DNA from: Escherichia coli
GTDB taxonomy: Bacteria; Pseudomonadota; Gammaproteobacteria; Enterobacterales; Enterobacteriaceae
Reading direction: 5' to 3' (one strand)
Assembly (NCBI RefSeq): GCF_003334405.1
Contig: NZ_QOWM01000004.1
DNA: 64,000 nt
The notes under the pieces: model-generated
Told to the model about the DNA's origin: nothing
Seen by the model: the letters and a program-made list of their open reading frames with translations, nothing else
Database searches by the model: none
Shown here: one piece after another, positions 47,190 through 50,357 of the stretch
How the letters are laid out: each line of letters opens with the position of its first letter
Numbering within the stretch: the stretch's first letter is position 1
Program-made: the position numbers and the translations under genes

Positions 47190-47666
47190 ATGACATCGCT
47201 GGTCGTTCCTGGTCTGGATACGCTGCGTCAATGGCTCGATGACCTGGGGATGAGTTTTTTTGAATGTGATAACTGTCAGGCTCTGCATCTGCCCCATATG
47301 CAGAATTTCGACGGTGTCTTTGATGCCAAAATCGATCTGATCGATAACACGATCCTGTTTTCTGCCATGGCGGAAGTCCGACCTTCAGCCGTATTGCCGC
47401 TGGCGGCGGATTTATCTGCCATCAATGCCAGTTCGCTGACCGTGAAAGCATTTCTTGATATGCAGGATGATAATCTGCCAAAGCTGGTGGTTTGCCAGTC
47501 TTTATCCGTTATGCAGGGCGTAACCTATGAGCAGTTTGCATGGTTCGTGCGTCAGAGCGAAGAGCAGATTTCGATGGTCATTCTTGAAGCTAATGCCCAT
47601 CAACTGCTGTTACCGACTGATGATGAAGGGCAAAACAACGTTACCGAAAACTATTTCCTCCACTGA
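47190..47666 (+). CDS. ybjN: Uncharacterised protein YbjN
   Basis: Known N-terminus MTSLVVPGLDTLRQWLDDLGMSFFECDNC at the ATG at 47190, 158 aa; track ORF 47142..47666. Confidence 0.88.
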   Translation: MTSLVVPGLDTLRQWLDDLGMSFFECDNCQALHLPHMQNFDGVFDAKIDLIDNTILFSAMAEVRPSAVLPLAADLSAINASSLTVKAFLDMQDDNLPKLVVCQSLSVMQGVTYEQFAWFVRQSEEQISMVILEANAHQLLLPTDDEGQNNVTENYFLH

Positions 47667-48016
47667 TAACTCCTTTCGAGCACGCAGTCGCTGGTGCAGT
47701 GGCTGCGCGCTGCAAAATTATCTGCTGTTTTTAACCTTTTCTTAAAGATTATTTCACTTCTCTTGTGTCGATTTGGCTTTATCACATAGAGCAAATATGC
47801 ATAAAAATTTGTTAAATACCGTTTTTTAATCCGAGCTATAGTCTCAAACCCTGGCTAAAGTTATTCTTGCGATGCTTTTATATAGCGAGCAGTGCTGGCC
47901 GGGAGAAAGTTCTCTTTTCTTACACCGCGCCGATAAAAAATATGCACGTTTATTGCATATCTTTCAGTGTGACAACTTTTGTTCGTTTGTTAACGAACTT
48001 TCAGAAGGAAAGAGAT

Positions 48017-49129
48017 ATGACCGCCTTAAATAAAAAATGGCTATCGGGTCTGGTTGCGGGTGCTCTGATGGCCGTCTCTGTCGGCACGCTCGCGGCTGAA
48101 CAAAAAACACTCCACATTTATAACTGGTCTGATTATATCGCCCCGGACACGGTGGCCAATTTTGAAAAAGAAACCGGTATTAAAGTCGTCTACGATGTTT
48201 TCGACTCTAACGAAGTACTGGAAGGCAAATTAATGGCCGGGAGTACCGGCTTTGATCTGGTGGTTCCATCTGCCAGCTTTCTGGAGCGCCAGTTGACTGC
48301 GGGAGTTTTCCAGCCGCTGGACAAAAGCAAATTGCCGGAGTGGAAGAATCTCGACCCGGAACTGCTGAAGCTGGTCGCCAAACACGATCCCGACAATAAA
48401 TTTGCTATGCCCTATATGTGGGCGACGACCGGGATTGGCTATAACGTTGATAAAGTTAAAGCGGTGCTGGGCGAAAACGCGCCCGTCGATAGCTGGGACT
48501 TGATCCTCAAACCTGAAAATCTGGAAAAACTGAAAAGCTGCGGTGTCTCTTTCCTGGATGCGCCAGAAGAAGTTTTTGCTACCGTGTTGAATTATCTCGG
48601 CAAAGATCCCAACAGCACTAAAGCGGATGATTACACCGGACCGGCAACAGATCTGCTGTTAAAGCTGCGCCCGAACATTCGTTATTTCCATTCATCTCAA
48701 TACATTAACGACCTGGCAAACGGCGATATTTGCGTCGCTATCGGCTGGGCAGGTGATGTCTGGCAGGCGTCAAACCGCGCGAAGGAAGCGAAGAATGGCG
48801 TGAATGTCTCGTTCTCGATTCCAAAAGAAGGGGCGATGGCGTTCTTTGATGTATTCGCCATGCCTGCGGATGCCAAAAACAAAGACGAAGCCTATCAGTT
48901 CCTGAATTACCTGCTGCGCCCGGATGTAGTAGCGCATATTTCCGACCATGTGTTCTATGCCAACGCCAATAAAGCAGCCACGCCGCTGGTGAGTGCGGAA
49001 GTCCGTGAGAACCCAGGTATTTATCCGCCTGCGGATGTTCGTGCGAAGCTGTTCACTCTGAAAGTGCAGGATCCGAAAATCGACCGTGTGCGCACCCGCG
49101 CGTGGACCAAAGTGAAGAGCGGAAAATAA
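48017..49129 (+). CDS. potF: Periplasmic putrescine-binding protein PotF
   Basis: ATG at 48017 gives MTALNKKWLSGLVAGALMAVSVGTLA signal peptide, 370 aa; track ORF 47867..49129 is extended upstream. Confidence 0.93.
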   Translation: MTALNKKWLSGLVAGALMAVSVGTLAAEQKTLHIYNWSDYIAPDTVANFEKETGIKVVYDVFDSNEVLEGKLMAGSTGFDLVVPSASFLERQLTAGVFQPLDKSKLPEWKNLDPELLKLVAKHDPDNKFAMPYMWATTGIGYNVDKVKAVLGENAPVDSWDLILKPENLEKLKSCGVSFLDAPEEVFATVLNYLGKDPNSTKADDYTGPATDLLLKLRPNIRYFHSSQYINDLANGDICVAIGWAGDVWQASNRAKEAKNGVNVSFSIPKEGAMAFFDVFAMPADAKNKDEAYQFLNYLLRPDVVAHISDHVFYANANKAATPLVSAEVRENPGIYPPADVRAKLFTLKVQDPKIDRVRTRAWTKVKSGK

Positions 49130-49223
49130 TCCGCAGTCGTAGATGCCGGAGGGGCGCACCACACCCGCCGGCAATTCGCACCATTATGGTGCGCTTGCAC
49201 ACATTCAATGCCGGAGAGCAGCC

Positions 49224-50357
49224 GTGAATGACGCTATCCCTCGCCCGCAGGCGAAAACCCGTAAGGCGCTGACGCCGCTATTAGAAATCCGCAACCTGAC
49301 CAAATCCTACGATGGTCAACATGCGGTGGATGATGTCAGCCTGACCATCTACAAAGGTGAAATCTTCGCGCTGCTGGGCGCATCCGGCTGTGGCAAGTCC
49401 ACGCTGCTGCGTATGCTGGCAGGTTTCGAACAACCTTCTGCCGGACAGATAATGCTTGATGGCGTCGATTTGTCACAGGTTCCGCCTTACCTGCGCCCCA
49501 TCAATATGATGTTTCAGTCTTACGCGCTGTTTCCGCATATGACCGTGGAACAGAACATCGCTTTTGGCCTGAAACAGGACAAACTACCGAAAGCGGAAAT
49601 TGCCAGCCGGGTCAATGAGATGCTCGGCCTGGTGCATATGCAGGAGTTCGCCAAACGCAAACCGCATCAGCTTTCCGGTGGTCAGCGACAACGTGTGGCC
49701 CTGGCCCGAAGCCTTGCGAAGCGCCCGAAACTATTACTGCTCGATGAGCCGATGGGCGCGCTGGATAAAAAGCTGCGTGACCGGATGCAGCTTGAAGTGG
49801 TGGATATTCTGGAGCGCGTCGGTGTGACTTGTGTGATGGTCACCCACGATCAGGAAGAGGCGATGACCATGGCGGGGCGCATCGCCATTATGAATCGTGG
49901 GAAATTTGTCCAGATTGGCGAACCGGAAGAGATCTACGAGCATCCGACTACCCGCTATAGCGCCGAATTTATTGGCTCGGTAAACGTCTTTGAAGGCGTA
50001 CTCAAAGAGCGTCAGGAAGATGGCCTGGTGCTTGATTCGCCGGGGCTGGTGCATCCACTGAAAGTCGACGCGGATGCCTCGGTGGTCGATAACGTGCCGG
50101 TACATGTGGCGCTGCGCCCGGAAAAAATCATGCTTTGCGAAGAGCCGCCCGCCAATGGTTGTAACTTCGCGGTGGGGGAGGTGATACACATTGCCTATCT
50201 CGGCGATCTTTCGGTGTATCACGTTCGTCTGAAAAGTGGGCAGATGATTAGCGCCCAGCTACAAAACGCCCATCGTCATCGTAAAGGGTTACCGACCTGG
50301 GGCGACGAAGTGCGTTTGTGCTGGGAAGTGGACAGCTGTGTGGTGCTGACGGTTTAA
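49224..50357 (+). CDS. potG: Putrescine ABC transporter ATP-binding protein PotG
   Basis: GTG at 49224 gives (M)NDAIPRPQAKTRKALTPLLEIRNL..., Walker A GASGCGKST, 377 aa; track ORF 49143..50357. Confidence 0.88.
   Translation: MNDAIPRPQAKTRKALTPLLEIRNLTKSYDGQHAVDDVSLTIYKGEIFALLGASGCGKSTLLRMLAGFEQPSAGQIMLDGVDLSQVPPYLRPINMMFQSYALFPHMTVEQNIAFGLKQDKLPKAEIASRVNEMLGLVHMQEFAKRKPHQLSGGQRQRVALARSLAKRPKLLLLDEPMGALDKKLRDRMQLEVVDILERVGVTCVMVTHDQEEAMTMAGRIAIMNRGKFVQIGEPEEIYEHPTTRYSAEFIGSVNVFEGVLKERQEDGLVLDSPGLVHPLKVDADASVVDNVPVHVALRPEKIMLCEEPPANGCNFAVGEVIHIAYLGDLSVYHVRLKSGQMISAQLQNAHRHRKGLPTWGDEVRLCWEVDSCVVLTV

Follow-up and report, generated by a model that had tools for sequence, protein, structure and literature searches.

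The glnALG operon is served by two promoters in tandem: an upstream sigma-70 promoter, glnAp1, is used when nitrogen is plentiful, and an NtrC-activated sigma-54 promoter, glnAp2, lies about 100 bp downstream of it in the leader. The NtrC sites of glnAp2 are placed just upstream, where they overlap glnAp1. The arrangement before potF, in the putrescine ABC-transporter operon potFGHI, resembles this tandem but differs in having no NtrC-like site upstream. The core elements differ as well, since glnAp2 (TTGGCACAGATTTCGCT) has the canonical GG and is strongly bound by sigma-54 (21-fold above threshold), whereas the potF site has TG and is bound 2-fold above threshold (PMC4591121). Similar to potF is glnHp2 (site OS06 of the same map), the promoter of another Ntr-regulated transporter, in which one core element departs from the consensus (TTTCA at -12) and sigma-54 occupancy is modest (6-fold above threshold; PMC4591121). 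Its defect, however, is at -12 and not at -24, and overlapping NtrC-like sites lie about 90 to 130 bp upstream of it (2381-2423; this and all positions below that are not marked as genome coordinates are those of the window, the whole 64,000-nt stretch of Escherichia coli contig NZ_QOWM01000004.1 that was analyzed).

Two further comparisons concern the sequence of the site. Of the 135 ChIP-bound sites, only the ygfT site OS32 (TATGCCCGTTTATTGCA) and the potF site carry T in place of the first G of GG, and over 21 bases ATATGCCCGTTTATTGCAT at ygfT (NC_000913.3, approximately 3030977-3030997, minus strand) and ATATGCNCGTTTATTGCAT at potF are identical in 20. OS32 is also weakly bound (3-fold above threshold; PMC4591121). 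It differs from potF in three ways: it belongs to another operon, in the purine and urate catabolism cluster; published scores indicate low conservation in other genera; and C in place of A at position 6 breaks the dyad. The AtoC sites of atoDAEB (GCTATGCAGAAATTTGCACA) share the order TATGCA ... TTGCA with potF, and AtoC is functionally linked to polyamines, but their arms are 6 nt apart where those of potF are 7 nt apart, and they are upstream enhancers, not core promoters. Identity with an AtoC site (GCTATGCAGAAAWTTGCRCA) was rejected on the same ground (ATGCA-N6-TGC against ATGCA-N7-TGCA at potF).

The closest described system is the record of the site itself, potFp of EcoCyc and RegulonDB (OS08), from which the element studied here does not differ: sequence, strand and position are the same, the 17-mer is identical, and the start is predicted 49 nt upstream of the gene. 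EcoCyc, RegulonDB and the published ChIP-seq map already contain the site with its imperfect -24 element and connect it with putrescine uptake under nitrogen limitation, and the potF sigma-54 site as such adds nothing to the record. Here, we add three features to that record: a -24 element without GG that is invariant throughout the family, a location of the site within the leader of a mapped sigma-70-type transcript, and a sole conserved NtrC-type site that lies downstream of potF.

Materials and methods

potF loci were fetched from 80 species, 54 of which are Enterobacteriaceae. The weight matrix used to score sigma-54-like sites was derived from 134 published sigma-54 ChIP sites, with the potF site left out. 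For the orthologous sites, the null distribution consisted of scores of the sigma-54 matrix at random positions within the same upstream regions.

Promoter motif and sigma-54 binding

Gene order in this part of the window is nfsA, rimK, ybjN, potF, potG (open reading frame list; ybjN, potF and potG per RefSeq annotation). The window is K-12 DNA, and 47600-48100 match E. coli K-12 MG1655 with 100% identity. Direct reading of the + strand places TATGCACGTTTATTGCAT at 47941-47958, in which ATGCAC (at the position of the expected TGGCAC), GTTTA and TTGCA follow one another (Table 1). Because five bases separate ATGCAC and TTGCA, the spacing between the doublets is the canonical one (TGGCAC-N5-TTGCA); the GC doublet at -13/-12 is present within TTGCA, in agreement with TTGCW, and the GG doublet at -25/-24 is replaced by TG. 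The first-pass annotation of this DNA had described a sigma-54-like element with correct spacing and a correct -12 TTGCA, with TG in place of GG at -24, about 60 nt from the potF ATG. All of this is borne out by the sequence, the end of the motif being 59 nt upstream of the start codon (ATG, 48017-48019). Since only the first G is replaced, the motif retains the second, more invariant G: five of the 135 ChIP-bound sites lack the first G, and one lacks the second.

Table 1. Positions in the window of the features around potF
Feature	Position	Strand	Sequence or elements	Basis or remark
Conserved upstream block	47775-47880	+	Invariant CTATA (47836-47840) and GCTAAAGTTATTCT (47854-47867)	Alignment of 19 genera
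Sigma-70-type promoter	47862-47874	+	-10 TATTCT (47862-47867); start G (47874)	-10 by sequence reading; start mapped
Dyad	47940-47960		ATATGCA-N7-TGCATAT	Inverted repeat, coincides with the sigma-54 motif; ATGCA and TGCAT cores invariant
Sigma-54 motif	47941-47957	+	TATGCACGTTTATTGCA	Sequence read and ChIP-seq site OS08
-24-like element	47942-47947		ATGCAC	TG (47943-47944) replaces GG
-12 element	47953-47957		TTGCA
Predicted sigma-54 start	47968	+		Motif centre 47949 plus 19, rule from PMC4591121, Table 1
Leader hairpin	47981-47998	+	GTTCG-TTTGTTA-ACGAAC	Inverted repeat; in the long and the predicted short transcript
potF coding sequence	48017-49129	+		Periplasmic putrescine-binding protein, 370 aa; b0854 (open reading frame list, RefSeq)
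Weaker NtrC-like site	49052-49068		TTCACTCTGAAAGTGCA	Inside potF 3' end; 3 mismatches
NtrC-consensus-like palindrome	49177-49193		CGCACCATTATGGTGCG	potF-potG spacer; 2 mismatches to TGCACC-N5-GGTGCA; candidate enhancer

In the sigma-54 ChIP-seq map of Bonocora et al. (2015; PMC4591121, Table 1), the site in row OS08 is exactly TATGCACGTTTATTGCA and is oriented toward potF. The peak centre (genome coordinate 892944, window 47954) and the motif centre (892939, window 47949) are 5 bp apart, binding is weak in vivo, the start is predicted 49 nt before the potF ATG, and the row carries the flag for promoters that EcoCyc had predicted earlier (PMC4591121). An earlier ChIP-chip region (genome coordinates 892604-893381) overlaps the motif, and the published ChIP-seq and ChIP-chip data together place sigma-54 holoenzyme at the site in vivo. 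potF also stands in the RegulonDB list of sigma-54-dependent promoters, as quoted in a passage of PMC3118216.

The best explanation for the motif, to which we assign a probability of roughly 0.7, is that it is the sigma-54 (RpoN) promoter of potFGHI, with a naturally attenuated -24 element. Against it stand the low occupancy, a score among the lowest of the 135 sites, a mapped start that lies elsewhere (47874, nitrogen-replete medium), the absence of potF from the rpoN-complementation RNA-seq table (M9 medium) and the silence of an NtrC ChIP-seq study (Brown et al. 2014) on potF and potG. With the weight matrix, the potF motif reaches 8.7 bits (fourth weakest among the 135 published sites), where the same site with TTGG (GG restored) would reach 19.6 bits.

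By sequence alone, the motif is indistinguishable from chance: with as many as 2 mismatches allowed, TGGCACN5TTGCW occurs 40 times in the window (44 expected), and 45 window positions score as high as the potF motif or higher. A functionless chance resemblance would fit these counts, consensus matches of such quality occurring at the chance rate. The motif is nevertheless raised above chance by its position, by its conservation in 53 species and by published data in which in vivo binding of sigma-54 is centred on the motif. It is the top sigma-54-like score within 47400-48100 and of the whole ybjN-potF region, and the element is kept family-wide with substitutions of a sigma-54-like kind. Despite the chance-level consensus and matrix counts, a chance match was therefore rejected on the conservation and ChIP data, and we regard it as barely credible.

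The strongest RpoN gSELEX peak genome-wide is labelled ybjN/potF and lies at genome coordinate 892632 (window 47642), and its authors assign it to another sequence, at 47535-47551. At other promoters, compared by hand, the gSELEX coordinate lies within about 100 bp of the ChIP coordinate. Being 307 bp upstream of the motif and assigned to 47535-47551, the peak does not support the potF motif and was rejected as evidence for it; a second sequence, at 47691-47707, is also nearer to the peak. The sequence chosen by the gSELEX authors, TTTGCATGGTTCGTGCG inside ybjN, is weakly sigma-54-like and itself has TG for GG. The other, CTGGTGCAGTGGCTGCG in the ybjN terminator, has canonical GG and GC doublets and scores 6.7 bits; among the aligned genera it is found in E. 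coli only.

Two further published sigma-54 ChIP sites fall in the window, glnHp2 (OS06; 2292-2308, minus strand) and a site in the ybjG/mdfA spacer (OS07; 37890-37906, plus strand), and these have its two highest weight-matrix scores.

Conservation

The element is kept at a similar distance from potF in 53 of the 54 Enterobacteriaceae species, and GG occurs in none of the species that keep it. Across 28 distinct orthologous 17-mers, positions 2-6 (ATGCA) and 15-17 (GCA) are invariant, as is the T at position 18. Variation is limited to C and T at position 7, to G and A at position 8, and to A and T at positions 10-11, and T occupies position 14 in 27 of the 28. Scored at these variable positions, the orthologues average 6.3 bits; the null distribution lies at -4.9 ± 4.8, and only 0.6% of its positions score as high as the orthologue mean. 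The substitutions follow the base preferences of sigma-54, in the pattern that sigma-54 recognition predicts. What these sequences raise is the question of why a disfavoured -24 element should be frozen in 53 species while the remainder of the site is near consensus.

Of 5402 E. coli records, 3157 have the same sequence over the surrounding 61 nt. In seven sequences unlike K-12, six of them sampled variant records and one from the GTDB reference strain, both arms are intact, and changes are confined to the upstream A-run, spacer bases or flanks. Read from this sampling, TG for GG is a fixed feature of every sampled E. coli genome and of all 53 species, not the outcome of decay.

The spacing is the same in 53 species, the Yokenella spacer being 2 bp shorter. 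TTGCA is unchanged in the orthologues save in Salmonella diarizonae, where the -12 TTGC is lost (CAGGCAT). In the same region, between roughly 75 and 46 nt from the potF start, an antisense site with canonical GG, GTGGTTTAAAACATGCC (8.5 bits), overlaps the downstream edge of the orthologous site. ChIP-qPCR primers for Salmonella potF were designed by Bonocora et al.

Upstream promoter and leader

The sole mapped potF start that we found is at genome coordinate 892864, window 47874 (18 reads, 5' UTR of 143 nt; Kim et al. 2012, PMC3415461, supplementary file 2), obtained in M9 glucose with NH4Cl, that is, under nitrogen-replete conditions (PMC3415461). It lies 94 nt upstream of the predicted sigma-54 start. 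The block GCTAMAGTTATTCT, which holds the -10 region, is present in 50 of the 54 species, and the poor -35 region suggests that this promoter may depend on an activator. With the mapped start at 47874, the sigma-54 site falls at +68 to +84 of the 143-nt leader. No start near 47968 is reported in the nitrogen-replete data, as would be expected of an unactivated sigma-54 promoter.

When nitrogen is plentiful, the conserved sigma-70-type promoter starts potF transcription at 47874, and sigma-54 RNA polymerase occupies the motif weakly in vivo. In the mechanism that we propose, the sigma-54 site is probably a second promoter, for nitrogen limitation, within the 143-nt leader. Under nitrogen limitation, phosphorylated NtrC would open the sigma-54 complex, a shorter transcript starting near 47968 would be added, and putrescine uptake would be raised as part of nitrogen scavenging.

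The upstream block of about 100 nt (Table 1) is more conserved than its flanks across 19 genera and includes the -10 element and the start at 47874. It contains a dyad, CTATAGCC-N9/10-GGCTACAG, and in most genera, though not in E. coli, an IHF-like core, TATCAATTTTTTA, on the minus strand. An Lrp ChIP signal has been reported at the potF promoter region.

Just before the potF ribosome-binding site, the leader hairpin shows compensatory changes elsewhere (GTCCG/CGGAC, GCCCG/CGGGC) with a conserved loop, and changes on both sides of the stem, for instance UA to CG, were found by RNAalifold. In place of this hairpin, Siccibacter, Cedecea and Buttiauxella have a GC-rich one with a T-run after it. 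A CU-rich stretch, TCTCTTTTCTT (47908-47921), is complementary to the potF ribosome-binding region, AAGGAAAGAGA (48005-48016). Because this stretch is present only in the long sigma-70 transcript, a sigma-54 transcript would escape the pairing. The pairing occurs in the E. coli minimum-energy fold and not in the consensus fold, and was rejected. A search of 47600-48100 against Rfam returned sub-threshold chance matches only, none at the gathering score.

Two other readings of the motif sequence were also rejected. TTGCAT as the -35 of an overlapping sigma-70 promoter has no well-spaced -10 by eye, and a scan of the + strand gave no promoter there. An upstream open reading frame from the ATG of the motif (47942) would have 7 to 30 codons or be fused to potF, as found for a shifted control frame; it has no Shine-Dalgarno sequence and is not conserved. 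In E. coli, this ATG is in frame with potF with no intervening stop (open reading frame 47867-49129). An N-terminal potF extension of 25 residues is possible in principle from the long transcript; it is not conserved in most other genera.

Candidate activator sites and expression

Nitrogen depletion raises potG mRNA 6.0-fold and potI mRNA 3.2-fold, and both RpoN and NtrC were concluded to be needed for the induction of these genes (Shimada et al. 2021). In nitrogen-starved E. coli, potF is up at both RNA and protein level. The literature thus reports induction by nitrogen limitation that depends on ntrC and rpoN, a dependence concluded for potG and potI. The NtrC ChIP-seq study of Brown et al. 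(2014) makes no mention of potF or potG. The nitrogen-limitation control of putrescine uptake envisaged by the first-pass annotation is supported by the published sigma-54 binding, the EcoCyc/RegulonDB listing and the reported induction. Since the ChIP-seq, EcoCyc, RegulonDB and expression reports already cover the site, that interpretation reproduces existing annotation.

A holoenzyme bound inside a leader could also act mainly as a brake, its closed complex at +68 to +84 hindering or occluding elongation from upstream without ever firing. The location of the site within the leader of the mapped transcript is as this would require, most sigma-54 sites are described in a passage of Bonocora et al. 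(PMC4591121) as holding transcriptionally inactive holoenzyme, and Shimada et al. suggest that the RpoN holoenzyme may repress some genes, a "repressive promoter" class into which such a site would fit. A weak site would make a poor roadblock, however; potG and potI go up on nitrogen depletion, reportedly in an RpoN-dependent manner, and potF is missing from the genes listed as changed by rpoN complementation in RNA-seq (M9 medium). We consider a brake improbable and retain the reading of the site as a nitrogen-limitation promoter.

The position of the candidate activator site would set potF apart. The ybjN-potF spacer contains no NtrC-like site with up to 3 mismatches, and upstream of potF a single match with up to 2 mismatches was found across the 54 species; an upstream NtrC enhancer was rejected on these counts. 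The potF-potG spacer has an NtrC-type site with up to 2 mismatches in 45 of the 54 species (0.014 expected per species). The half-sites are conserved and the centre is variable, and several species have the perfect consensus. In E. coli, this site is the palindrome CGCACCATTATGGTGCG, 1236 bp downstream of the sigma-54 motif and shortly before the potG start at 49224. An NtrC gSELEX peak (genome coordinate 894130, approximately 49140 in the window) coincides with it, and NtrC shifts the authors' potG promoter probe in vitro. The weaker site TTCACTCTGAAAGTGCA, 125 bp upstream of CGCACCATTATGGTGCG, recurs in orthologues, a recurrence that is confounded by protein coding. As RNA, the CGCACCATTATGGTGCG palindrome could in addition fold into a 7-bp hairpin.

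Shimada et al. read the NtrC site as part of a separate potG promoter. The weight matrix gave no match above 5 bits within 49200-49600, and there is no other sigma-54 ChIP peak near potG, low-stringency peaks included; a separate potG sigma-54 promoter was rejected on these two grounds. An intragenic match at 48641-48657 (8.5 bits) was likewise rejected as the potG promoter, having no ChIP peak. With neither an NtrC-like site upstream nor a sigma-54 site for potG, the simplest pairing would be that of the potF sigma-54 site with the enhancer 1236 bp downstream. Because no NtrC-like site lies upstream, the activator would most likely reach the promoter by looping the DNA from the conserved palindrome in the potF-potG spacer. 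This raises the question whether a natural enterobacterial NtrC enhancer can act from 1.2 kb downstream, across a coding gene.

Dyad symmetry

Sigma-54 recognition alone would not account for the A and T at positions 2 and 3, which are invariant in the 28 distinct orthologous sites and occur in 6 and 2, respectively, of the 135 bound sites. It is through these two bases that the left arm complements the -12 element, and the result is the ATGCA-N7-TGCAT dyad, which as RNA folds at -5.5 kcal/mol in E. coli. The sequence may be under two constraints, that of a sigma-54 site and that of a dyad, either the operator of a dimeric regulator or a leader RNA hairpin; the left arm would then have to complement the -12 TTGCAT, and ATGCA would be forced over TGGCA. 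The invariance of T at position 18 agrees with such a constraint, and both the leader's minimum-energy fold and the RNAalifold consensus contain the hairpin (-5.3 to -9.1 kcal/mol). Yokenella keeps both arms with a 5-nt spacer, by which the sigma-54 spacing is lost and a hairpin is still possible.

Other evidence weighs against a second constraint. The stem is invariant and therefore offers no covariation to RNAalifold, and a stem of 5 to 7 bp rich in A and U is weak. Conservation reaches asymmetrically upstream (GA.AAAAT), and complementarity beyond the core is marginal (2.73 pairs against 2.54 in the permutation control), for which reason an extended dyad symmetry was rejected. No known regulator was matched: to our knowledge, none of the sites of NtrC, Nac, ArgR, PuuR, CytR, PurR and Lrp fits the dyad. 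We hold two constraints to be unlikely on this balance, although a second, overlapping one may be the most interesting reading left for the invariance of ATGCA. Taken with the promoter reading preferred above, potF control could represent an unusual Ntr variant, in which an attenuated ATGCA sigma-54 promoter under a second overlapping constraint is combined with an NtrC enhancer 1.2 kb downstream; we offer this combination tentatively, as possible but on the doubtful side.

The ATGCA-N7-TGCAT element is absent from Yersinia, Rahnella, Pectobacterium and their relatives. Most of these genera have a different, conserved palindrome, TTGTATC-N5-7-GATACAA, at the corresponding place about 40 to 60 nt upstream of potF, which suggests that a different regulator may act on potF there.
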